Positions 5,168 to 16,563 of a DNA stretch of 24,000 nucleotides are shown piece after piece (positions within the stretch are counted from its first letter, which is position 1; the number at the start of each line of letters is the position of its first letter). The position numbers and the translations under genes are program-made. A model generated the notes under the pieces. It searched no databases, was not told where the DNA came from, and was given only the letters and a program-made list of their open reading frames with translations. The stretch comes from Gammaproteobacteria bacterium (lineage in GTDB: Bacteria > Pseudomonadota > Gammaproteobacteria > HTCC5015), in assembly GCA_013817245.1 (NCBI GenBank), contig JACDDA010000003.1, forward strand, positions 233,039 through 257,038, read 5' to 3'.

Positions 5168-5554
5168 TTATTTCAACATGGTTTTTATAGTGGTAAACGT
5201 CAACATGCCTAGCACGGTTAAACAAAGCGAACCTATAACATGCGTAAACGATAAGCCTAATGCCCACAACCAACGACTTTGTTGCAACAAGTTAACGACT
5301 TCGGCGGAAAAAGTCGAAAACGTGGTGAGGCCACCTAAAAAGCCGGTGATGATTAATAATTTCCATTGCGGTGACAAGGCGGGATATTGCAGAAAAAAAG
5401 CCAACGCGATACCAATAATGTAAGCGCCTAAAAAATTAGCCAGCAATGTGCCTAGCGGCACCGCCGCAAAATAAACATTGAAGTGCTCTGCTAATTGCCA
5501 ACGCAATAAAGCGCCGACGCTTGCACCGAAACAAATCGCGATCACTGCGTACAT
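5168..5554 (-). CDS. crcB: Fluoride ion channel CrcB/FluC
   Basis: 128 aa with four TM segments and the signature GFLGGLTTFSTFS plus GA..R N-terminal motif. Confidence 0.93.
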   Translation of the reverse strand: MYAVIAICFGASVGALLRWQLAEHFNVYFAAVPLGTLLANFLGAYIIGIALAFFLQYPALSPQWKLLIITGFLGGLTTFSTFSAEVVNLLQQSRWLWALGLSFTHVIGSLCLTVLGMLTFTTIKTMLK

Positions 5555-5653
5555 GCCGCTGCCGACCTTTGCATTGCTGCGATTGATTTAAAAGATGCGG
5601 GAAGTATATCGAAGTTAGACAGTGGATGAAGGATAGCGAGTTTGCACGCAAAC

Positions 5654-5688
5654 ATAAAAAAAGCCCGTCTTGTGAACGGGCTTTTTGT
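5654..5688 (-). terminator. Rho-independent terminator following tRNA-Glu (palindromic, usable in both directions)
   Basis: The minus strand reads aaaaagcccgt-tcacaag-acgggcttttttt. It is a GC-rich 7-8 bp stem followed by a T7 run, starting 4 nt after the tRNA 3' end. Confidence 0.8.
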
Positions 5689-5691
5689 GTT

Positions 5692-5767
5692 TGGCGTCCC
5701 CTAGGGGATTCGAACCCCTGTTGCCGCCGTGAAAGGGCAGTGTCCTAGGCCTCTAGACGAAGGGGAC
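5692..5767 (-). tRNA. tRNA-Glu (anticodon UUC), CCA encoded
   Basis: The reverse complement GTCCCCTTCGTCTAGAGGCCTAGGACACTGCCCTTTCACGGCGGCAACAGGGGTTCGAATCCCCTAGGGGACGCCA folds as a cloverleaf. The anticodon loop is CTTTCAC. It is nearly identical to E. coli tRNA-Glu. Confidence 0.97.
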
Positions 5768-5859
5768 AAAAACTTCACGAACTGATTTCAAGCTGGCTGA
5801 AATCAAATTGCACTTAATTTAAATCGTCTTGCATCTTAACTTTGTCGATCTCTTAAAAC

Positions 5860-5935
<76 letters not shown>

Positions 5936-6014: not shown

Positions 6015-7420
6015 GCCTGCTGTAGCGTAGCAATCGTCCGATCTAGACGTGCCAAGCTGTGTGGCGCGCCTATTAAGTATAAGGTCAAATCAATGGATGG
6101 CGACGCTCCCTGCCCGGTTACGGCCGCACGCAAAGGTTGTGCGACTTTGCCCATCCCCACTTGGAGTTTTTCGGCGGTTTGCTGAATGGCGACATGAATA
6201 GATTCTTTTTGCCATGCATCGCCCGTGGATAATTCAGCCAAGGCGTTCCGAATAGCGCGCAATGGTTCAAGCGCTGCTGCGTTTAAATGCTTGGCAGCCG
6301 CCTCTTCATAATCGCTAAAGTCTTGATAAAAATAACGGGCGCTAGCGGCCATCTCAACCAAAGTTTTACTGCGTTCACGCAAAGCTAAGACCACATCAAC
6401 TACGGCCGGGCCGCTCGCGGTATTAACGTCTATGCGTTGCAGATACAGCGCTAAACGTTGCGCAATATCTTCCGCCGGCAAGGTTTTTAAATAATGCTGA
6501 TTCAACCACAATAATTTTTCTGGATTAAACGCGGCCGCGGCTTTATTGACATGCGTGACATCAAATAAAGCGATCATTTCATCAATCGAAAACACTTCTT
6601 GATCGCCGTGTGACCAACCTAAGCGCACTAAATAATTCAACAAGGCTTCGGGCAAATAACCGTCTTGCTCATATTGCATCACACTGACGGCGCCGTGACG
6701 TTTCGATAAGCGACTACCATCGGCGCCTAGAATCATCGGTAAATGTGCATAAGCCGGCAGCGTTGCGCCCAACGCGCGCAGAATATTCATTTGGCGCGGT
6801 GTGTTGTTCAAATGATCGTCACCCCGAATCACATGGGTGATGCCCATGTCCATATCGTCGACCACCACGGTGAGGTTATATGTGGGCGTGCCATCACTGC
6901 GCGCAATAATCAAATCATCTAACTCATCATTGCCGAAAATAACTTCACCGCGAATCAAGTCATTAACGACGACCTCGCCGCTTTGCGGATTTCGAAATCG
7001 AATCACCGGTGCAATACCCGCCGGCACGTCGGTGCGATCACGACATAAACCGTCATAACGCGGTTTTTGTTTATTCGCCATTTGTTCGGTGCGCAATGTT
7101 TCTAGGCGTTCTTTGGAACAATAACAATGATAAGCGTGGTTTTGGTGGAGCAGCTGCGCGTTAATTTCGTGATAACGATCAAAGCGCTGAGTTTGATAAT
7201 ACGGACCTTCATCAGCCGCTAAATTCAACCACTGCATGCCTTCTAAAATAGCGTCAACCGATGCTTGAGTAGAACGTTCTTGGTCGGTATCTTCAATACG
7301 CAACACAAACTGTCCCGCAGATTTGCGCGCATATAACCACGAAAACAATGCTGTGCGTGCGCCGCCAATATGTAAGAAGCCAGTAGGACTAGGGGCAAAG
7401 CGAGTTTTAATAACAGTCAT
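6011..7420 (-). CDS. gltX: Glutamate--tRNA ligase
   Basis: Class I HIGH motif ([15 protein letters not shown]) and KMSKS-type motif (RLSKRHG). 469 aa, colinear with bacterial GltX. Confidence 0.97.
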
Positions 7421-7580
7421 GATTCTTCAATGCAGGCAGGTCAAGGAGCCGCGAATTCTAGCAGAGCGACCGAACAGCGCCTAATCCGAACGCTTAGCGG
7501 AAAGCCGGCAAATTTGTCAGACAATTCATGTGGGTCTGTGGCAATATTTAATCTTTCAGAACAAGCAATTGGAAGGCATT

Positions 7581-8333
7581 ATGGGGGCTACACAGCCGTT
7601 AGTTGAATGGCGTTCTTGCGGTCTTACTACCGTGGGCGCAGTGCGTAAACACAATGAAGATTCTTATCTTGCAATGCCCGAAAAAAATCTCTGGGTCGTA
7701 GCGGATGGCATGGGCGGACATGCGCGCGGTGACCTAGCCAGCCAAGCAGTGGTGCATGCGTATAGCGATTTCGAACCGCTACGCACCTTGGCGCAAACCA
7801 TGGACGATCTTGAAGATCGTGCTTTAAAAGTTAACACCAAATTACGCGAACATTTAGACGGTAATCCCAGCAAAGTCATGGGCAGCACCATTGTCTTGAT
7901 GCACGCGCGACAACAATACGTGTTTCTCTTGTGGGCTGGCGATAGTCGTATCTATTTATATCGCAAAGGCAATCTCTTGCAAGTGTCACACGATCATAGT
8001 TTTGTTCAAGAAAGTGTTGATAAAGGTGCGATGACACCGAGTCAAGCACAAAATCATCCTAACGCTAACATCATCACCCGCGCCATCGGCGTGCATGATC
8101 ATTTATATCTCGATGTAGAATATTTAGAATACCAAGCGGGTGATAAATTTTTGCTTTGTTCCGATGGCTTATTTAAAGATGTCACGATGGCTGAGATTGC
8201 AGAACAGCTGGATAAAATTCCGTTTAAAGCAGCGGAAGGTTTAATCGAAATGGCCTTATCAAAAAGCGCCAACGACAACGTAACTATTATTGTGGTGGAA
8301 GCTTTTCCACTAACCACGTCTAGCAAGTCTTAA
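7581..8333 (+). CDS. PP2C-family Ser/Thr protein phosphatase
   Basis: PP2C motifs RKHNEDS, VADGMGGH, AGDSRIY, LLCSDGL, DNVTIIVV. I prefer ATG 7581 (GGAAGG at 7571-7576) over the track's GTG at 7530. Confidence 0.9.
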   Translation: MGATQPLVEWRSCGLTTVGAVRKHNEDSYLAMPEKNLWVVADGMGGHARGDLASQAVVHAYSDFEPLRTLAQTMDDLEDRALKVNTKLREHLDGNPSKVMGSTIVLMHARQQYVFLLWAGDSRIYLYRKGNLLQVSHDHSFVQESVDKGAMTPSQAQNHPNANIITRAIGVHDHLYLDVEYLEYQAGDKFLLCSDGLFKDVTMAEIAEQLDKIPFKAAEGLIEMALSKSANDNVTIIVVEAFPLTTSSKS

Positions 8334-8347
8334 GGATTTAATACAGC

Positions 8348-11300
8348 ATGGCGGCGTCTGTAAACATCAAAGAATTAAACCAATTACTTGATGCCGTTCT
8401 AGATGGTGAACTAGCCCTTGAAGAAGCCGAGATCACTGTCACTGGTTGGTTAAACCGTCATCCCGAACAAGCAGAAGCTTATCTTGCGTATGTTCAGTCT
8501 TATCATCAACAACATCCCTTGCCGGATGCTGCGTTTGAATGTTTCACACGCGCATTAGAAAACACCATTCAGCGCCGAGAAGTAGCTAATGATGACGACA
8601 TTACACGCTTATTAGAACAGCCGGAAAATCTCAAAGCACTGCTACTTAACAATAACCCTGACCAATTAAAAACTTTATTTGGCGGCGACTCGACGCATTT
8701 TGATTTAAATACGATTACCCGCGAACGCGCCACCCATACACAAACACAACCCAACTCCCAGCTTACCGACAGTGGCAGCGTTAAAGCAGGCGATCCAACG
8801 ACGTTGATTTCCGATACCAATTTAAGACGCCATAGCGTTAATCTTGAACGCGGCATGGTAGGACCCGGTTCGACACTTAAAGATCGTTTTGTATTAATTC
8901 GATCGATCGGTGAAGGCGGCATGGGTGTCGTTTACAAAGCCAAAGATTTACTTAAAGTAGAAGCTCACGATCGCAATCCGTATGTTGCGATTAAAGTTTT
9001 ATCACGAGCTTTTCGTTCGCATCAAAATGCTTTTATTTCTTTGCAGCGCGAAGCGAGTAAAGCGCAACGTTTAGCGCATCCCAATATCGGTACGGTTTAC
9101 GATTTCGATCGCGAAGACGATACGATTTATATGACCATGGAGTTATTAGAAGGCACCGAACTTAAAGACTATATTAAACAGTTACCCGTGGATGGCTTAA
9201 GTTTTACAGAAGCCTTTCCGTTAATTGAAGGCATGTCAAATGCACTCGCTTATGCGCATCAAAATAGTTTAATTCACTCGGACTTCAAACCCGGCAATGT
9301 ATTTTTAACGAAAGACGATCACATCAAAGTTATCGACTTCGGTATCGCACGCGCCTCGACTACGCGCAATGCTGAAGGCGAACAAACCGTTTTTGACCCA
9401 GGTCAACTGGGCGCATTAACGCCTGCGTATGCCACTCAAGAAATGTTTGAAGGTCAAAACCCACATCCTAGCGATGATGTTTATGCACTAGGCTGTACGA
9501 GTTATGAATTATTAACCGGTAAACATCCCTACGGAAAATTATCGGCGCCTAAAGCTAAAGAAAAAAATCTCAAACCATTCCGGATTGAAAACAAAAAACT
9601 GACCTCTCGCCAAAAGAAAACCTTGCTGCGCGCGGTAGCGATTAATCGTCAAGACCGCATTCAAAGTATTGATGAATTTATTGAAGGTATACGTCCGCAC
9701 CCCTCGTTCATCATGCCTATTGCCGCTGCTGCTGCATTAATTATTATCTTGCTGGGTTGGGTCGGTTCACTGACTGTTAACAACTATCTCGACAATCAGC
9801 TCCTTATGGCTTTACAAGCAGAAGACGATCTTACCGTCCAAAAAGCGTTAAATGAATTGTTAGCTATGCCCAGCGGCAAATCCCAATTAGCGATTGCTCA
9901 AACCAGTCGCGATAGCATCATGCGTTATTTTGAAACACGCATTGATAATGCCGTTGATCCGCTTAATAACAAGTATGATTATCCCACCGCTGAAAAATTG
10001 CTGGCGCAAGCGAATCGGTTATATGCTGATTCTTCCGTGATTGCTTCGCAGCAAAGTTCTTTAACCACGAGTAAAAATCTACTGCTCCACGAATTAAGTG
10101 AACGTCTAGATCGTGCCTTAAATCAAATACAACTCTTGCCCGATACCAATGCCGACAATATTCCCAAGATTCTGGACATGCTGCAACAGATTGCACCGCA
10201 GCATCCATTGCGTAATGACGAGCGCATAAGCTTAGCGTATGCAAAAGCCACTGAACAAACACTGGCCGCCAACTTACCGGAGCGCGCTAATAACTTATTA
10301 CAAATGGGCTTAAAGTATTTTCCTAATAACGGTCGCTTACAAAATCTTGCCGACCAAACCAATATCGAAACTCGCAAAAATACTGTCGCCAACAACATTG
10401 TTGATTTAGAAAAAACTTTACAGCCGCAACTCGCCACTTTTTCTACTTTAAAAACTGCGCAAGCCCTCGCCGACGCCGTGTTCGCATTACGCCAGCTTGC
10501 GCCACAACACGATTTATTAGCGCGCATTGACGCGCAAATAGAACCTGTATTTAAAACCACACTTAATGAATTTATTAAACAGAAAAACTGGTCATCTGCC
10601 GAAAAATTATTCAACGATAACGCTTTATTATTATCTCCCCTATTTTTAAATGCACACAGACAACAGCTCACACAAGCCGGCAGCAGCGACAATCCGCTTG
10701 CCAACAGTTTACAAACACAGCTATATAAACAGTTAGCATTTGCAGACATTAAAGATTATAGCTGGCATCAAAAAATCGTGGTTGCGCATCACCAACTCAC
10801 TGCCACACTGCCCTTTCAATCAGCCGCCATTCAAAAAATCAATGCGGATATCGCTGCTACTTATATAACAATCGCTAAAAAAATAACCAATCAACATCGC
10901 CATTTCTTAGCTCATGAAATTTTACGTTCTGGCACATTATTTTTAACGGCACAAAACAGTTTGCAAAAAGCCGATGAAGATATTCGCCAAATCCAAATAG
11001 CCTACCAAGCCGAACTCGCTAATCGCGAACGCTTAGCCAAAATAGCCGCTGCCAAACAAAGCTTATTAATCCAAGCAGAGGCCGAAAAAATTGATAAAGC
11101 ATTAACGACTTATCAACAATTAAAAAAAGAACTACCGCAGAACGACAAATTTTTAACCGAGGCTGCGCCTCAAGCGTTAATTAACGTCTTCCTCATCACA
11201 GCAAATCGCGCGATTAACGAGAAAAGAATTAATGAAGCGGAATCTATACTGACGCGTGGTTTAGCTACGTTTCCTGACAATGCTGCATTAAAGACCGCCA

Positions 11301-12523
11301 AAGCTAATTTAAAAGCTCAACTGATTATCGCCGACTTAACTGATTTGTTTGACACGGCCAGCATCCTTACCTTAGATACTATTCGTGAAAAGATTGCCTT
11401 TTTAACGCGTACTACACCCGAGCGCATCGACGCATTGAATCAAGAGTTTAGTGAACGCTTAGCGCGCCGCATAAAAACACTCGAAGCCACGAACCTGCGT
11501 GCAGCGCATGCATTACGTCAACAAGGCTTACAGTTATGGCCCGAAAACAAGGCGCTCCAAAAAGTGGTTCTGCCACCATTACCTAAACCTTCTATTTTTG
11601 CCGCCGACGGTATTAATAAAGCTGAAAATGGATTCATTACAGAAGCCAAAAGTTTGTTACGACAAGCAGAAGTCAAAGAACCTAGACATCCTGATATCAT
11701 GCAACTCAAAACTTTATTGCAACAAAAAACTACTCAAGCGCAAGCAAGCGCACAAGAAGCGCGCCGTGCTTTACAAAATTTTGATTATGCAAGAGCCAGT
11801 GTTGCAATTAATAATGCGGTTGATATGTGGAAAGATCACACAGAATTTAAAGATTTGAAAAAACGCATTGATACCTTCATGCAAAAAATTGCCGCTGGCG
11901 CACGTTTATGCAGCGATAGAATGATGAGTTATGGTCAAGATGATCGCGCCGGTTGTTATGATCTATTATCGAACAACACACGTGCATTACAACTCGTGGT
12001 AATCCCTCCCTTTGCTATAGGCCAACCCGCCTATGCCATGAGTAAATATGAAATCTCCAACGCGGAACTCGATTTGTTTTGCGAAGCGTCCGGACAATGT
12101 AAAGTCGGCGATAATGCCACGCAACCTGCAACGCAAGTCACGCCCCAAATCGCTCAGGCTTACGCAAACTGGTTATCGGAAGAAACTGGATTTACTTATC
12201 GTCTGCCGACAGTGAGCGAATGGCAACACGCTGCTAATGCGGGCGGGCGCGAAGCCAATAGCGACTATAATTGCAAACTGCGCGCAGGCAAGCAACTTAT
12301 CAAACGCCCAGCCTTACTCAATACCAGCTTCGGCAAAGCTAATCGTTGGGGTGTTGTTAATTATGTTGGCAATGCGCAAGAATTAGCGGGTAGTGGTAAC
12401 AGCTGGCAAACTTTAGGCGGGCATTACCAAGACACCATGTCTAATTGCAATACACAGTTGAGTCGCAATTATAGTGGCCCAAATGCATTAACTGGCTTTC
12501 GCTTAATCCGCGAACTTAACTAA
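8348..12523 (+). CDS. Bitopic Hanks-type Ser/Thr protein kinase with a long TPR-like extracytoplasmic region and a C-terminal FGE-sulfatase (SUMF1-like) domain
   Basis: Kinase domain at about 8888-9700: Gly loop GEGGMGVVYKA, VAIKVL, catalytic loop HSDFKPGN, DFGIAR, TPAYATQE. Single TM segment FIMPIAAAAALIIILLGWVGSLTV (about 9706-9777). Repeated A..LL..GL..FP.N..L motifs. C-terminal YRLPTVSEWQHAANAGG ... NRWGVVNYVGNAQE ... LTGFRLIREL is typical of FGE-sulfatase domains. Confidence 0.9.
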   Translation: MAASVNIKELNQLLDAVLDGELALEEAEITVTGWLNRHPEQAEAYLAYVQSYHQQHPLPDAAFECFTRALENTIQRREVANDDDITRLLEQPENLKALLLNNNPDQLKTLFGGDSTHFDLNTITRERATHTQTQPNSQLTDSGSVKAGDPTTLISDTNLRRHSVNLERGMVGPGSTLKDRFVLIRSIGEGGMGVVYKAKDLLKVEAHDRNPYVAIKVLSRAFRSHQNAFISLQREASKAQRLAHPNIGTVYDFDREDDTIYMTMELLEGTELKDYIKQLPVDGLSFTEAFPLIEGMSNALAYAHQNSLIHSDFKPGNVFLTKDDHIKVIDFGIARASTTRNAEGEQTVFDPGQLGALTPAYATQEMFEGQNPHPSDDVYALGCTSYELLTGKHPYGKLSAPKAKEKNLKPFRIENKKLTSRQKKTLLRAVAINRQDRIQSIDEFIEGIRPHPSFIMPIAAAAALIIILLGWVGSLTVNNYLDNQLLMALQAEDDLTVQKALNELLAMPSGKSQLAIAQTSRDSIMRYFETRIDNAVDPLNNKYDYPTAEKLLAQANRLYADSSVIASQQSSLTTSKNLLLHELSERLDRALNQIQLLPDTNADNIPKILDMLQQIAPQHPLRNDERISLAYAKATEQTLAANLPERANNLLQMGLKYFPNNGRLQNLADQTNIETRKNTVANNIVDLEKTLQPQLATFSTLKTAQALADAVFALRQLAPQHDLLARIDAQIEPVFKTTLNEFIKQKNWSSAEKLFNDNALLLSPLFLNAHRQQLTQAGSSDNPLANSLQTQLYKQLAFADIKDYSWHQKIVVAHHQLTATLPFQSAAIQKINADIAATYITIAKKITNQHRHFLAHEILRSGTLFLTAQNSLQKADEDIRQIQIAYQAELANRERLAKIAAAKQSLLIQAEAEKIDKALTTYQQLKKELPQNDKFLTEAAPQALINVFLITANRAINEKRINEAESILTRGLATFPDNAALKTAKANLKAQLIIADLTDLFDTASILTLDTIREKIAFLTRTTPERIDALNQEFSERLARRIKTLEATNLRAAHALRQQGLQLWPENKALQKVVLPPLPKPSIFAADGINKAENGFITEAKSLLRQAEVKEPRHPDIMQLKTLLQQKTTQAQASAQEARRALQNFDYARASVAINNAVDMWKDHTEFKDLKKRIDTFMQKIAAGARLCSDRMMSYGQDDRAGCYDLLSNNTRALQLVVIPPFAIGQPAYAMSKYEISNAELDLFCEASGQCKVGDNATQPATQVTPQIAQAYANWLSEETGFTYRLPTVSEWQHAANAGGREANSDYNCKLRAGKQLIKRPALLNTSFGKANRWGVVNYVGNAQELAGSGNSWQTLGGHYQDTMSNCNTQLSRNYSGPNALTGFRLIRELN

Positions 12524-12535
12524 AGGAATAATTTC

Positions 12536-13147
12536 ATGAGCAGAGCAGGTCTTCCTGAATCTAACTTACGCAAACTCGCTATCGCTTACGCCAGCGGTAA
12601 AGTTGATCGCGAAAATTATCGTAAACTTCGCACAAGACAATTAAGCGCTTTAGATTTTGATAAAGCGTTGCCCGATTTACCAGATGAAATTGCCGCGATT
12701 GGTGTGCCCTCTGTAAAAGTAGATGCACCGAAAAATGCTGGCGGCAATCTTCTTAAAGGGCGTTCTCTAAAAACAATTGTCATGGCAATAGCGGCGATTG
12801 TATTAGTAGGCATCGTCGGAATATATTTTACGGGCGACAATAAAAAATCAAATGAACAAACACAAAATACGCAGAAAATTGATTTAGCCGTAGAAGCCCA
12901 AAAATTAATTCAAAAGCCCGAATGGACTAATAGTGACATGGGATATTTTAAACGTCTTTGGGATAGCCAAGAAGCACAAGAATTAACCACTGCTCGAGAA
13001 AGCCGCTGGTTTGCAGACTTAGAAAGAGATATCGTACGGCGCATTAATGAAAATAAACAATTAATGCAAACCGCCGAAGATAGTGAAGCGGTACAAAAAC
13101 AATTAACTGATTTGCGTTTGTTCTACGCACAGCTCGCGACGGAATAA
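12536..13147 (+). CDS. Hypothetical bitopic membrane protein, likely translationally linked to the kinase
   Basis: Starts 12 nt after the kinase stop, with AAGGA 9 nt upstream. One TM segment IVMAIAAIVLVGIVGIYF, an N-terminal cytoplasmic part of about 80 aa and a C-terminal helical part of about 100 aa. No recognisable family. Confidence 0.7.
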   Translation: MSRAGLPESNLRKLAIAYASGKVDRENYRKLRTRQLSALDFDKALPDLPDEIAAIGVPSVKVDAPKNAGGNLLKGRSLKTIVMAIAAIVLVGIVGIYFTGDNKKSNEQTQNTQKIDLAVEAQKLIQKPEWTNSDMGYFKRLWDSQEAQELTTARESRWFADLERDIVRRINENKQLMQTAEDSEAVQKQLTDLRLFYAQLATE

Positions 13148-13155
13148 ATTACCTA

Positions 13156-13188
13156 AGCTGTTCTCAATCGTTGAGAACAGCTGCTTTT
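13156..13188 (+). terminator. Rho-independent terminator closing the phosphatase-kinase operon
   Basis: agctgttctcaa-tcg-ttgagaacagct (perfect 12-bp stem), followed by gctttt. Confidence 0.8.
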
Positions 13189-13382: not shown

Positions 13383-14204
13383 ATGTCAGCCGATGCATGG
13401 ATACGCTTAATATGTTTCAGCGGTGTTTTCAGTCTACTGTTGATTTTAGAACGGTACTGGCCGCAGCGTCGCAAAACGGTGGCCGCATCCTTCAGATACG
13501 GAGCACGCTGGTTCAACAATCTCGGTTTATTGTTATTAAATAGCATCCTGCTGCGCGCGTTGACCGTCGTGGCAACATTAAGCAGTGCTTTATGGGCTAC
13601 TCAACATCAATGGGGACTATTCAATCTGATCAGCTTGCCCGTGTTGGTCAAAACCTTGATCACCTTGATAATATTGGATCTGCTTATTTATGCTCAGCAC
13701 CGACTCATGCACAGCTGGCCACTGTTGTGGCAACTCCACCAAATTCATCACAGCGACATTGATCTCGATCTCACTACCGGCGGCCGCTTTCATCCACTTG
13801 AAATAGGATTGTCGATTTTGCTGCAATCGGTCGTCATCGTTTTATTAGGACTTAATGTTGTCGGCGTTTTAGCCTATGGAATCTTGCTCAATGCATTTGC
13901 CCTCTTCGTGCACGCCAATCTCCGTTTAAATTCTAAACTGGATGCCGGCTTACGACGAATAGTGATTACGCCTGATTTACATCGCATCCATCATTCACAA
14001 ATTGTGCATGAAACTAACAGCAATTACGGCACGATACTCAGCGGCTGGGATCGGTTGTTTAAGAGTTACCGTGCTACTGCGCAACAAGCGCCTGCCGATA
14101 TTGACATTGGCCTGACCCAATATCCACACAACTTAAGCCTGCTAGCATTATTGTTATTACCTTGGCGGACGCATGCCAGATCCAATTCCAAACACTCAAC
14201 GTAA
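13383..14204 (+). CDS. Fatty acid hydroxylase / sterol desaturase superfamily integral membrane di-iron protein
   Basis: Multi-TM protein with the three His boxes of the family: HRLMH, HQIHHSD, HRIHHS. It also has the RFHPLE motif. Confidence 0.85.
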   Translation: MSADAWIRLICFSGVFSLLLILERYWPQRRKTVAASFRYGARWFNNLGLLLLNSILLRALTVVATLSSALWATQHQWGLFNLISLPVLVKTLITLIILDLLIYAQHRLMHSWPLLWQLHQIHHSDIDLDLTTGGRFHPLEIGLSILLQSVVIVLLGLNVVGVLAYGILLNAFALFVHANLRLNSKLDAGLRRIVITPDLHRIHHSQIVHETNSNYGTILSGWDRLFKSYRATAQQAPADIDIGLTQYPHNLSLLALLLLPWRTHARSNSKHST

Positions 14205-14259
14205 ATACTAATACGCGAAATTATTTTATCAATACTCACATTACCTAAAAGAGAACATC

Positions 14260-15219
14260 ATGCGCGCCATGCTGCCTTTATTACAAGCAACTGATTTTCC
14301 TAAGATCCGTCGGCAATCGTTACAGACCTTACAAGTCAATCTTGGTTATCGTTGCAATCAAGCGTGTTTTCATTGTCATGTAAATGCTGGCCCCACACGC
14401 ACCGAAGCCATGGACAGCGACACCATTAATACCGTGCTAAGGTTTATCGAACAACACAACATTACCACCTTAGACATCACTGGCGGCGCACCCGAATTAC
14501 ATCCACAATTTCGTGAACTAGTCAGCGCTGCACGCACACGCAATGTGCATGTCATTGATCGTTGCAATCTCACTGTTCTATTAGAACCGGATCAAAGCGA
14601 TACCGCTGCTTTTCTTGCGCAGCAGAAAGTTGAAATTGTTGCTTCATTACCTTGTTATCTAGAAAGCAATGTCGATGAACAGCGTGGCGATGGCGTATTT
14701 CAAAAAAGTGTAGAGGCTTTACATTTGCTCAACAAATTAGGTTACGGCATGCTCAATAGCAGTCTAACTTTAAATTTAGTTTACAATCCTATCGGCGCTT
14801 ACCTACCATCCGCACAAGAAAATCTAGAAATAGATTACAAACGCGAACTTCAAGCTCGTTACAACATTCATTTTAATCATCTATTTGCCTTAACCAATAT
14901 GCCCATTGCACGATTTGGCAGTACTTTAGTAACACAAGGTAAATTTGAAGAATACATGACACTGCTAAAAAATGCTTATCAAGCCAGCAACTTAGATAAT
15001 CTAATGTGTCGTTCGTTAATCAGCATTGACTACCAAGGTTATGTTTACGATTGCGATTTTAACCAAATGCTCGGCATAGGCTTAGGAGCAAGCAATAAAC
15101 TTCGAACCCACATTCGAGAATTACTCGATCACAATCTAAACGACACACCGATTGCAATTGCCGATCATTGTTATGGCTGTACTGCGGGTCAAGGTAGCAG
15201 TTGCGGCGGCGCACTTTAA
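14260..15219 (+). CDS. Radical SAM / Cys-rich C-terminal domain protein (ArsS-like family)
   Basis: CNQACFHCH (CxxxCxxC, 14353-14376) near the N-terminus, and a GGAPEL SAM-binding-like motif. The C-terminal Cys-rich tail is CRSLISIDYQGYVYDCDFN ... DHCYGCTAGQGSSCGGAL. Confidence 0.88.
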   Translation: MRAMLPLLQATDFPKIRRQSLQTLQVNLGYRCNQACFHCHVNAGPTRTEAMDSDTINTVLRFIEQHNITTLDITGGAPELHPQFRELVSAARTRNVHVIDRCNLTVLLEPDQSDTAAFLAQQKVEIVASLPCYLESNVDEQRGDGVFQKSVEALHLLNKLGYGMLNSSLTLNLVYNPIGAYLPSAQENLEIDYKRELQARYNIHFNHLFALTNMPIARFGSTLVTQGKFEEYMTLLKNAYQASNLDNLMCRSLISIDYQGYVYDCDFNQMLGIGLGASNKLRTHIRELLDHNLNDTPIAIADHCYGCTAGQGSSCGGAL

Positions 15220-15223
15220 TGCT

Positions 15224-15901
15224 ATGAAATTATCGATCATCATTCCCACACTCAATGAAGCCGCGCGCATTCAACACACGCTTCAATCACTGCAAACATT
15301 ACGTGGCACATATGCTGAAATTATTCTGGTTGATGGCGGCAGCAACGACAACACGCTCATGCTTGCGCAGTCCTTATGCGATTATACAATCAGCAGCGCA
15401 CGCGGACGCGCACAACAAATGAACGCCGGCGCTGCCATTGCTACGGGTGATGTTTTATTATTTTTACATGCCGATACACAATTGCCTACGAACGCACTCG
15501 CTATACTTCAGCAGCACGAACAATCTCTAAGCTGGGGGCGTTTTGACATCCGCTTAAGCGGACAACATTTTTTATTTCGCATTATCGAGCGAATGATCAA
15601 TTCGCGCTCTCGACTGACAGGCATTGCCACCGGCGATCAAGCTATTTTTGTAACACGTGAATTATTTTTTCGTAGCGGTGCTTACCCTGCACTTCCGCTC
15701 ATGGAGGATATTGCTTTAAGTCGCACATTGCGGCAACACAATAAACCCTTATGTTTACGCGACACTGTCATTAGCGATAGCCGCTATTGGGAAACCCATG
15801 GCATCATCAGAACCGTATGCCGCATGTGGTATTTACGGCTAGCTTATTTTTGCGGCGTATCTTCCGAAAAATTAGTTCGTCAGTATTATCGTAATACTTA
15901 A
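15224..15901 (+). CDS. Family-2 glycosyltransferase-like protein (the type described as rSAM/selenodomain-associated transferase 2)
   Basis: MKLSIIIPTLNEA...EIILVDGGSNDNT...LFLHADT is a GT2 N-terminal Rossmann/DxD-like pattern. ATG 15224 lies 4 nt after the rSAM stop. The track's start at 15152 overlaps the rSAM gene and is unlikely. Confidence 0.85.
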   Translation: MKLSIIIPTLNEAARIQHTLQSLQTLRGTYAEIILVDGGSNDNTLMLAQSLCDYTISSARGRAQQMNAGAAIATGDVLLFLHADTQLPTNALAILQQHEQSLSWGRFDIRLSGQHFLFRIIERMINSRSRLTGIATGDQAIFVTRELFFRSGAYPALPLMEDIALSRTLRQHNKPLCLRDTVISDSRYWETHGIIRTVCRMWYLRLAYFCGVSSEKLVRQYYRNT

Positions 15902-15906
15902 ATCGA

Positions 15907-16563
15907 ATGCCAGAAAATAATTCCACACAATTATTGATCTTTACTAAAGCCCCTATACCCGGCCAGGTAAAAACGCGTTTAATCCCTGCATTAAGCGCGG
16001 CAGCAGCGGCTGAACTGCATATAAAATTACTTGCCCACACCTTAGAACAAGTTAAAACTCTCACATGGCGCAAACAACTTTGGTGCGCGCCCGATACACA
16101 ACACCCACTATTTGCGACTTATCAACAACAATTCAACGTATCCTTACATCAACAAATAGGTGAAGATTTGGGTGCGCGCATGCAACATGCATTTGCCACC
16201 GCCTTTAAACAAGCAGAACAAGTCATCATCATTGGCAGCGATTGCCCCGCGATTGATCACCAATATCTAGTCGAAGCACAACAAAGCCTGAACCATAAAA
16301 CGCCCGTAGTATTAGGTCCTGCTGAAGACGGCGGATATGTATTGATAGGCCTCCAACGCACCGACCCCGCGAAACTGCAAAAAACTTTTACTGCACTGTT
16401 TAACGAGATGCCATGGAGTCAACCGAACTTGCTGCGCTTAACCATTAACCAACTGCATACAGCCAATATTGGCTGCCAGTGCCTGACAACAAAACGAGAC
16501 GTTGATACCCTGGACGACCTTGCCTGGTTAACAAGGCAACACTCGCTATTATTAAGTCAGTGA
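15907..16563 (+). CDS. DUF2064 family protein (CofC/MobA-like nucleotidyltransferase fold; the type described as rSAM/selenodomain-associated transferase 1)
   Basis: LLIFTKAPIPGQVKTRL...IIIGSDCPAID...VLGPAEDGGYVLIGL are the hallmark DUF2064 motifs. It starts 5 nt after the GT2 stop. Confidence 0.85.
   Translation: MPENNSTQLLIFTKAPIPGQVKTRLIPALSAAAAAELHIKLLAHTLEQVKTLTWRKQLWCAPDTQHPLFATYQQQFNVSLHQQIGEDLGARMQHAFATAFKQAEQVIIIGSDCPAIDHQYLVEAQQSLNHKTPVVLGPAEDGGYVLIGLQRTDPAKLQKTFTALFNEMPWSQPNLLRLTINQLHTANIGCQCLTTKRDVDTLDDLAWLTRQHSLLLSQ

Follow-up and report, generated by a model that had tools for sequence, protein, structure and literature searches.

A four-gene ArsS-family radical SAM operon with an accessory membrane hydroxylase in a gammaproteobacterium: a candidate locus for arsenosugar lipid synthesis

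A four-gene operon encoding a membrane hydroxylase and an ArsS-family protein

We analysed a 24,000-nucleotide stretch of DNA from an uncultured gammaproteobacterium (assembly GCA_013817245.1, contig JACDDA010000003.1, positions 233,039 to 257,038; hereafter the window), in which four + strand open reading frames (ORFs) at 13383-16563 encode a membrane hydroxylase, an ArsS-family radical S-adenosylmethionine (SAM) enzyme, a family 2 glycosyltransferase (GT2) and a DUF2064 protein. Direct reading of the sequence bore out intergenic gaps of 55, 4 and 5 nt, from which a preliminary description of this DNA had deduced a single operon. The unit does look like one: the gaps are tight, a terminator-like hairpin lies upstream, and a scan of the window found no + strand terminator-like site between the four genes. 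The GC content of the operon (0.42-0.46) is the same as that of its flanks, and an Rfam search 5' of it returned neither a riboswitch nor any other RNA. Horizontal acquisition of the operon was considered and rejected, given this composition and the synteny kept in its clade. The features are:

13156-13182, + strand: terminator-like hairpin (12-bp stem, 3-nt loop, T-run) that closes the upstream transcription unit and forms the 5' boundary of the four-gene unit
13383-14204, + strand: di-iron membrane hydroxylase/desaturase (FA_hydroxylase or 'sterol desaturase' family, PF04116), 273 aa
14260-15219, + strand: ArsS-family radical SAM enzyme (TIGR04167, PF12345), 319 aa
15224-15901, + strand: small soluble GT2 of GT-A fold (TIGR04283, PF00535), 225 aa from its ATG
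15907-16563, + strand: DUF2064 protein with a CofC/MobA-like nucleotide-diphospho-sugar-transferase fold (TIGR04282, PF09837), 218 aa

Going by profile matches, genes 2-4 are assigned to known families named from their genomic context and the hydroxylase to PF04116. The radical SAM protein scores 458.5 bits against TIGR04167 (cutoff 300), its residues 16-319 aligning to positions 2-303 of the 303 in the profile, and 187 bits against PF12345/DUF3641. Its CX3CX2C motif is CNQACFHC (residues 32-39), with C32, C36 and C39 invariant in our alignment A1, and its C-terminal Cys-rich DUF3641 domain, which ends HCYGCTAGQGSSCGGAL, retains the HCYGC...GSSCGG cysteines, of which C304, C307 and C315 are likewise invariant. 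The GSSC in this segment is the Cys form of the GxxU motif noted for selenoprotein members of the ArsS family (PMC13188914). The family is highly conserved, the best 120 of more than 8000 matches being 63-82% identical to the window protein; a PDB sequence search retrieved generic radical SAM cores only. The ArsS annotation in the preliminary description is correct, as are the three accessions that it gave (TIGR04167, TIGR04283 and TIGR04282), all matched above their NCBIfam cutoffs; NCBIfam names genes 2-4 all "arsenosugar biosynthesis". Judged by its sequence, the protein is a predicted ArsS in every respect, and what the locus lacks is an arsM gene adjacent to or co-transcribed with arsS.

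The absence of arsenic and selenium genes from the window, as originally reported, was upheld: Pfam scans of the window ORFs of at least 100 aa gave no match to an ars, selD or methyltransferase family, and tblastn of the window with probes of both ArsM types gave none either. The same was true of ars and selD genes in the ~10 kb past the left edge and the ~8 kb past the right edge.

For the GT2, the ORF list places the start at a TTG (15152), but the ATG at 15224 is better: with this start, the TIGR04283 profile aligns from residue 3 of the protein. The ATG form scores 267.3 bits against TIGR04283 (cutoff 182; profile 1-221 of 221) and 69.4 bits against PF00535, and its closest solved structures by sequence, 9omm, ArnC and dolichol-P-mannose synthase, are weak matches (E = 1e-5 to 1e-4). 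The DUF2064 protein scores 204.3 bits against TIGR04282 (cutoff 134; profile 1-189 of 189) and 109.9 bits against PF09837/DUF2064, and also matches CofC TIGR03552 (E = 4.7e-13, 49 bits against a 105-bit cutoff) and PDB 3cgx, a 'putative nucleotide-diphospho-sugar transferase' (E = 8.8e-17). These matches agree with the earlier calls of a GT2 and a CofC/MobA-like nucleotidyltransferase. Hydropathy predicts no transmembrane segment in either protein.

The hydroxylase matches PF04116 intact with 96.6 bits (cutoff 31). Hydropathy indicates 4-5 hydrophobic segments, and the three His boxes are HRLMH(106), HQIHH(119) and HRIHH(200), with H106, H110, H119, H122, H123, H177, H200, H203 and H204 invariant in alignments A2 and A3; its AF2 model has a pLDDT of 92.3. 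OlsE (NF052566), its top NCBIfam match, was rejected as an identity (96.2 bits against a 475-bit cutoff), and a PDB sequence search found no relative. In trees, the window hydroxylase lies on a long branch outside a mainly ArsS-linked clade.

The hydroxylase recurs beside genes of the ArsS system

Below, HYD denotes the window-type PF04116 hydroxylase, PNDR a pyridine-nucleotide-disulfide oxidoreductase and VTT/DedA a membrane family; L and P numbers are given to loci and HYD homologues, respectively. The preliminary description had made its proposal depend on co-conservation of the four genes in other genomes, and their order is indeed syntenic in the window's clade, whose ArsS proteins are about 70% identical: L093 reads HYD-ArsS-GT2-DUF2064-MipA-type II secretion system (T2SS), and L091 has the same order except that two genes on the opposite strand separate HYD from ArsS (6062-7751; a tandem pair of 258 aa each without a Pfam match). 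Assemblies GCA_028284675.1 and GCA_036381555.1 are the sources of L091 and L093, respectively. In a third member, L090 (2755-4566), HYD is truncated to 171 aa and ArsS is present without GT2 and DUF2064, guaB-guaA standing in their place. In L055 (7723-8439), HYD is frameshifted, the frame breaking after the second His box. Some lineages thus show signs of decay. Identities to clade relatives are 71% for ArsS, 52-58% for GT2, 44-45% for HYD and 38-39% for DUF2064, so that HYD, whose divergence falls between those of GT2 and DUF2064, is not anomalous. By itself, this clade pattern could be inherited synteny.

What links HYD to ArsS-system genes is that a search outward from HYD finds the association recurring in many gene orders. 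A metagenome scan with the HYD alignment yielded 80 loci (39-47% identity), in 21 of which a system gene adjoins HYD, many of the contigs being too short to judge. Among the orders are HYD-VTT-PNDR-ArsS-ArsM-GT2-DUF2064 (L134), HYD-VTT/rhodanese-ArsS-GT2-DUF2064 (L161), ArsS-GT2-DUF2064 followed by HYD (L172), GT2-HYD-DUF2064 with a 3-nt gap (L125), GT2-HYD (L132, L180), HYD-ArsM-like with an 11-nt gap (L181) and HYD followed by MTAP (L105). Two further homologues stand in tight operons: HYD-VTT/rhodanese-ArsS-GT2-DUF2064 for P0214, which is present in 141 blocks of the contig collection, and Dus-HYD-VTT-PNDR-ArsS-GT2-DUF2064 for P0173, where HYD and VTT overlap by 4 nt. The GT2 and DUF2064 genes of the HYD loci are of the TIGR04283 and TIGR04282 types, above the NCBIfam cutoffs; the commonest direct neighbour of HYD is a VTT/DedA protein, often rhodanese-fused (15 loci). 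ArsM-type genes occur in the HYD-bearing clusters of L024, L134, L138, L181 and an Acinetobacter plasmid, and the HYD-linked ArsS genes fall in at least five separate places in the ArsS tree.

The plasmid, pJNE5-X3_NDM-1 of Acinetobacter portensis JNE5 (NZ_CP096121.1, 137-146 kb), has arsS-VTT/PNDR-DUF547-TIGR04283-TIGR04282-ArsM-family methyltransferase-PiT on one strand and, on the other, mtnP and a sterol-desaturase gene whose product is 43% identical to the window HYD (E = 3e-59). Its ArsS cluster (L186, 1-12001) adjoins an IS3 element and a Tn7-like tnsA/tniB/tniQ module and, with such neighbours on an NDM-1 plasmid, may be mobile.

Other HYD homologues have different company. P0122 adjoins a rhodanese gene near sulfate-assimilation genes, and P0123 and P0131 adjoin thioesterase, HIT or CDP-alcohol phosphatidyltransferase genes, none of the three being beside ArsS. 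There are also HYD-VTT/rhodanese modules without a nearby ArsS (L171, 2651-4815 and 5959-7938; L112, 391-1068 and 3655-4657), accompanied by a divergent regulator that is a fusion of ArsR/SmtB helix-turn-helix and rhodanese domains, a small methyltransferase, a PNP_UDP_1 phosphorylase and a DsrE-like protein, suggesting that a related pathway does without ArsS.

The hydroxylase thus appears to belong with the trio of ArsS, GT2 and DUF2064, as had been supposed, being found beside ArsS, TIGR04283, TIGR04282, ArsM-like, MTAP and VTT/DedA genes in shuffled orders. That the operon opens with the hydroxylase does not hold as a general rule, HYD being present in 4 of 80 ArsS loci (see below) and its position varying. 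Its association with the ArsS system appears to be undescribed in the literature searched.

Survey of ArsS neighbourhoods

A scan with the ArsS alignment, taking one genome per species, gave 80 ArsS loci, all from beta-, gamma- or zetaproteobacteria. Neighbours were counted by tblastn with probe proteins and by NCBIfam and Pfam annotation, ArsM being counted within 10 kb. Genes found near ArsS, and the loci out of 80 that have them, are:

TIGR04283-type GT2: 58
DUF2064: 52
VTT/DedA-PNDR fusion, or the reductase alone: 40
TIGR03169 "N-terminal to SelD" oxidoreductase: 17
unassigned 340-aa protein: 16
ArsM-type methyltransferase: 15
DUF3047: 15
DUF547: 11
ECF sigma factor: 11
MTAP: 9 (in most of them directly upstream of ArsS)
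HYD: 4

The 15 ArsM-type genes comprise nine of a type that scores above the cutoff of the NF038099 'arsenosugar biosynthesis ArsM' model (548.9 against 400 bits) and six of a type nearest arsinothricin ArsM, which score below the arsinothricin ArsM cutoff. The MTAP neighbour scores 308 bits against TIGR01694 (cutoff 275). The joint occurrence of TIGR04282 and TIGR04283 beside TIGR04167 is found both in the window and in 52-58 of the 80 loci. These counts show that the trio is real and common, that about one-fifth of ArsS loci are explicitly linked to arsenic, and that HYD is rare.

In a neighbour-joining tree, ArsM-linked and unlinked ArsS proteins are intermixed. On average, ArsM-linked proteins share 68.7% identity among themselves, unlinked ones 66.8%, and the two groups 67.4% with each other, which argues for a single function family-wide. 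In loci where no arsM adjoins, the ArsS sequences give no hint of another function.

Fusions of VTT/DedA proteins with rhodanese or with a MerA/Lpd-like disulfide oxidoreductase were seen at L041 (3234-5429), L038 (1292-2260), L183 (3425-8942) and L184 (8971-11121), and such fusions also flank ArsM-ArsS in a cyanobacterial plasmid (L183, Pseudanabaena pPg_02). DedA-oxidoreductase and DedA-rhodanese fusions are listed as unexplained in the DedA literature (PMC10127716), and the ArsS clusters give them a context.

On plasmids, arsS is carried by 49 Burkholderia records. In one from the cultured and genetically tractable Burkholderia glumae (L182, NZ_CP100267.1, 1-14314), arsS is found with MTAP-TIGR04283-TIGR04282-FAD oxidoreductase, an ECF sigma/anti-sigma pair, Trx/CcdA, an MFS transporter, DUF547 and a second radical SAM gene (TrsS-like, 106 bits), and the cluster has no arsM.

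Comparison with known systems

The closest characterised counterpart is the cyanobacterial ArsM-ArsS arsenosugar pathway of Synechocystis sp. PCC 6803 (Xue et al., 2019; Cheng et al., 2021; cited in PMC12159101; 10.1101/2022.09.23.509062). The window ArsS belongs to the same NCBIfam equivalog, TIGR04167, with the same radical SAM motif and C-terminal Cys-rich domain, and shares 45.5% identity with the Pseudanabaena galeata ArsS, which adjoins an annotated arsenosugar ArsM. It differs in having no arsM adjacent or within ~42 kb, in being coupled to a membrane hydroxylase and to TIGR04283 and TIGR04282, neither of which the Pseudanabaena locus has, and in its host, a non-photosynthetic gammaproteobacterium unlike the cyanobacterial hosts.

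The hopanoid side-chain pathway comprises HpnH (adenosyl-hopene transferase), HpnG (nucleoside phosphorylase family) and HpnB/HpnI (GT2). It resembles the ArsS system in logic: radical SAM addition of a 5'-deoxyadenosyl group, adenine removal by a PNP/MTAP-family enzyme, glycosyltransferases and a membrane lipid product. No hopanoid genes are present at the window, and the acceptor atom of ArsS in its characterised reaction is arsenic, in contrast to the carbon of HpnH. The HpnH and HpnB models of NCBIfam gave weak matches only among the window proteins, and an HpnH (TIGR03470) reading of the window ArsS was rejected at 24.4 bits against a 225-bit cutoff.

With the lipid hydroxylases of PF04116 (the ornithine-lipid hydroxylase OlsE, sphingolipid and sterol hydroxylases, and the ether-lipid enzyme alkylglycerol monooxygenase), the HYD subfamily shares the Pfam family, the three His boxes and a polytopic topology; its VTT/DedA and ArsS-system neighbours are not described for any characterised PF04116 member. 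The TIGR04282 protein matches F420 CofC and 3cgx over its whole length, below the CofC cutoff, and NCBI calls it a glycosyltransferase by context only. ArnC and dolichol-P-mannose synthase, polyprenyl-phosphate enzymes that work with DedA-family lipid flippases (PMC10127716), are the closest named solved relatives of the window GT2, and in relatives of the operon VTT/DedA genes are the partners met most often. The window GT2 differs from the polyprenyl-phosphate GT2s in being short (225 aa) and free of transmembrane helices, and the window has no DedA gene.

A proposed pathway and the alternatives to it

Altogether, we favour reading 13383-16563 as a single operon of the ArsS/TIGR04283/TIGR04282 system, which is widespread and here takes the form of a variant with an accessory membrane di-iron hydroxylase that probably serves an arsenosugar lipid route, a reading that we hold with modest confidence. 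In the literature, ArsS takes the first committed step to arsenosugars by adenosylating the arsenic of ArsM-made methylarsenite (10.1101/2022.09.23.509062; PMC12159101). This first step has been shown only for a cyanobacterial homologue, and from it we infer four more. In the window host, ArsS with its [4Fe-4S] cluster and SAM would transfer a 5'-deoxyadenosyl group to a trivalent methylated arsenical held by the C-terminal Cys-rich domain, giving 5'-deoxy-5'-dimethylarsinoyl-adenosine. An MTAP-type phosphorylase, encoded beside ArsS in some relatives but in this host necessarily the housekeeping enzyme, would then take off adenine to leave a 5-substituted ribose-1-phosphate; the CofC/MobA-like TIGR04282 protein could activate this sugar phosphate with a nucleotide; the GT2 could move the 5-deoxyribosyl unit to a glycerol- or lipid-type acceptor; and the hydroxylase may act on the lipid-linked product or on its acceptor, a membrane lipid. 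The pathway would then end in a membrane arsenosugar lipid and not in a free sugar. With arsM outside the operon, either another locus of the genome or the environment would have to supply the methylated arsenic.

A lipid acceptor or product is suggested by the hydroxylase family, which acts on membrane lipids, together with lipid flipping by DedA proteins, which are lipid scramblases or flippases (PMC10127716). The preliminary description had likewise proposed a membrane-associated, possibly lipid-linked product, and this part of it is plausible given the HYD family and the recurrent VTT/DedA partner. It had also set that product against arsenosugar synthesis, and here the step away from arsenic is unsupported, because HYD-bearing relatives often carry ArsM-type genes; nor do ArsS sequences split by ArsM linkage.

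Several findings weigh against the proposed arsenosugar lipid route. No arsM or other ars gene was found in ~42 kb (the window and ~18 kb of flanks), and 65 of the 80 ArsS loci have no ArsM-type gene inside 10 kb. The commonest ArsS partners are thiol- or chalcogen-handling proteins (VTT-PNDR, TIGR03169, rhodanese, DsrE and Trx/CcdA), which are compatible with arsenic-thiol chemistry and equally with that of selenium or sulfur. HYD occurs in just 4 of the 80 ArsS loci, several of its nearest homologues are in unrelated contexts, L091 has two opposite-strand genes between HYD and ArsS, and the window lacks the VTT/DedA partner that usually accompanies HYD. No report of an activity for TIGR04282 or TIGR04283 was found in the literature searched, which for DUF2064, DUF3641, TIGR04282, TIGR04283, the later arsenosugar steps and arsenolipid genes gave annotation-level mentions only.

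Some of these points would suit the same enzymology acting on another element, where ArsS without arsM adenosylates a non-arsenic soft nucleophile, such as a selenium or sulfur species delivered by the rhodanese or disulfide-reductase partners, and the trio makes a 5-deoxyribosyl conjugate of it. Besides the scarcity of near ArsM-type genes and the frequency of VTT-PNDR (40 loci) and TIGR03169 (17), such a substrate would fit the rhodanese and DsrE genes inside HYD-bearing clusters, the arsM-less B. glumae plasmid clusters with their Trx/CcdA and second radical SAM genes, the ArsR-rhodanese regulators adjoining HYD-VTT modules without ArsS, and the existence of selenoproteins among ArsS-family members. 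We nevertheless consider it fairly unlikely: methylated arsenite is the sole experimentally supported substrate of the family, ArsS sequences show no split by ArsM linkage, all specific methyltransferases in the clusters belong to the ArsM family, the Acinetobacter cluster includes a PiT phosphate/arsenate transporter, and As(V)/As(III)-thiol handling would call for thiol reductases as well. If the trio alone were functional, the hydroxylase could instead be an unrelated upstream lipid-tailoring gene whose adjacency is inherited synteny, as its rarity beside ArsS, the ArsS-less surroundings of its nearest homologues P0122, P0123 and P0131, the split in L091 and truncation in L090, the 55-nt gap (the widest in the unit) and its long branch outside the mainly ArsS-linked clade might indicate. 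This is weakened by shuffled but persistent co-location and seems unlikely to us. The subfamily stands beside ArsS, TIGR04283, TIGR04282, ArsM-like or MTAP genes in at least eight gene orders, among them an insertion between GT2 and DUF2064 and overlapping or near-abutting frames; the ArsS tree has HYD-linked members in five or more separate parts; and no terminator separates HYD from ArsS in the window. A same-strand copy within 2.5 kb would be expected by chance in ~0.05 per 80 loci against the 4 observed, by a rough estimate of our own that assumes ~2 HYD copies per 4-Mb genome.

It is highly improbable that the cluster is decaying in the window's lineage and its product no longer made. The losses in L090 (GT2, DUF2064 and part of HYD), the frameshifted HYD of L055 and the lack of an arsM, VTT/DedA or MTAP partner in the window point that way, but all four window ORFs are intact: each is full length and aligns with its profile from one end to the other, no invariant catalytic residue is lost, and identities to clade relatives keep the usual rank order (ArsS > GT2 > HYD > DUF2064).

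Returning to the proposed arsenosugar lipid route, only its first two enzymes, ArsM and ArsS, have been demonstrated, and the enzymes that lead from the adenosyl-arsenical to arsenosugars and arsenosugar phospholipids are the gap addressed here. The window and its relatives nominate a set of candidates for these missing arsenosugar and arsenolipid steps in heterotrophic bacteria, namely TIGR04282, TIGR04283, MTAP, the VTT/DedA-disulfide reductase or -rhodanese fusions and the PF04116 hydroxylase, and point to cultured carriers in the A. portensis and B. glumae plasmids. Our findings suggest that the hydroxylase recurs as a component of a pathway whose products may be membrane arsenic lipids. 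Which organisms make the arsenolipids that dominate marine particulate arsenic is debated. In ocean particles, arsenosugar phospholipids prevail among the arsenolipids, and the acyl-ether forms of these phospholipids led one study to propose bacterial producers, with no genes known (10.1101/2021.03.22.436501). More speculatively, the ArsS clusters with HYD and VTT/DedA might represent the missing bacterial route to membrane arsenosugar lipids, or else to a non-arsenic 5-deoxyribosyl lipid head group, an idea that we offer tentatively and that may well prove wrong. Such a route would run from radical adenosylation through phosphorolytic adenine removal, DUF2064 nucleotide activation and GT2 transfer onto a glycerolipid to HYD tailoring and DedA flipping. 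If so, heterotrophic proteobacteria would be a source of ocean arsenosugar phospholipids, possibly including the acyl-ether forms. The coincidence of acyl-ether arsenolipids with an ether-lipid enzyme in PF04116 is no more than a lead.

Genes flanking the operon

The window genes around the operon are housekeeping or unrelated. Downstream are T2SS genes gspC-F and a rhomboid protease gene; immediately upstream are genes for a PP2C phosphatase and for a Ser/Thr kinase of 1391 aa that includes an FGE-sulfatase domain, preceded further upstream, according to Pfam scans, by carbonic anhydrase, leuA, GFA, M23 peptidase, crcB and gltX genes. Within 5168-5935, the crcB gene (fluoride channel family, - strand) lies downstream of two tRNA genes (5695-5767 and 5863-5935), and no fluoride riboswitch reached the Rfam gathering score. 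Between the kinase gene and the operon, a 203-aa ORF without a Pfam family (12536-13147) ends at the strong terminator, and L091 has a 202-aa gene, also lacking a Pfam match, in the same position. At 7530-12523, PP2C is followed by the kinase, in which a single region is predicted to span the membrane and the FGE-sulfatase-like domain is C-terminal; of this gene order, the relatives L090 and L091 conserve the gltX-PP2C part.

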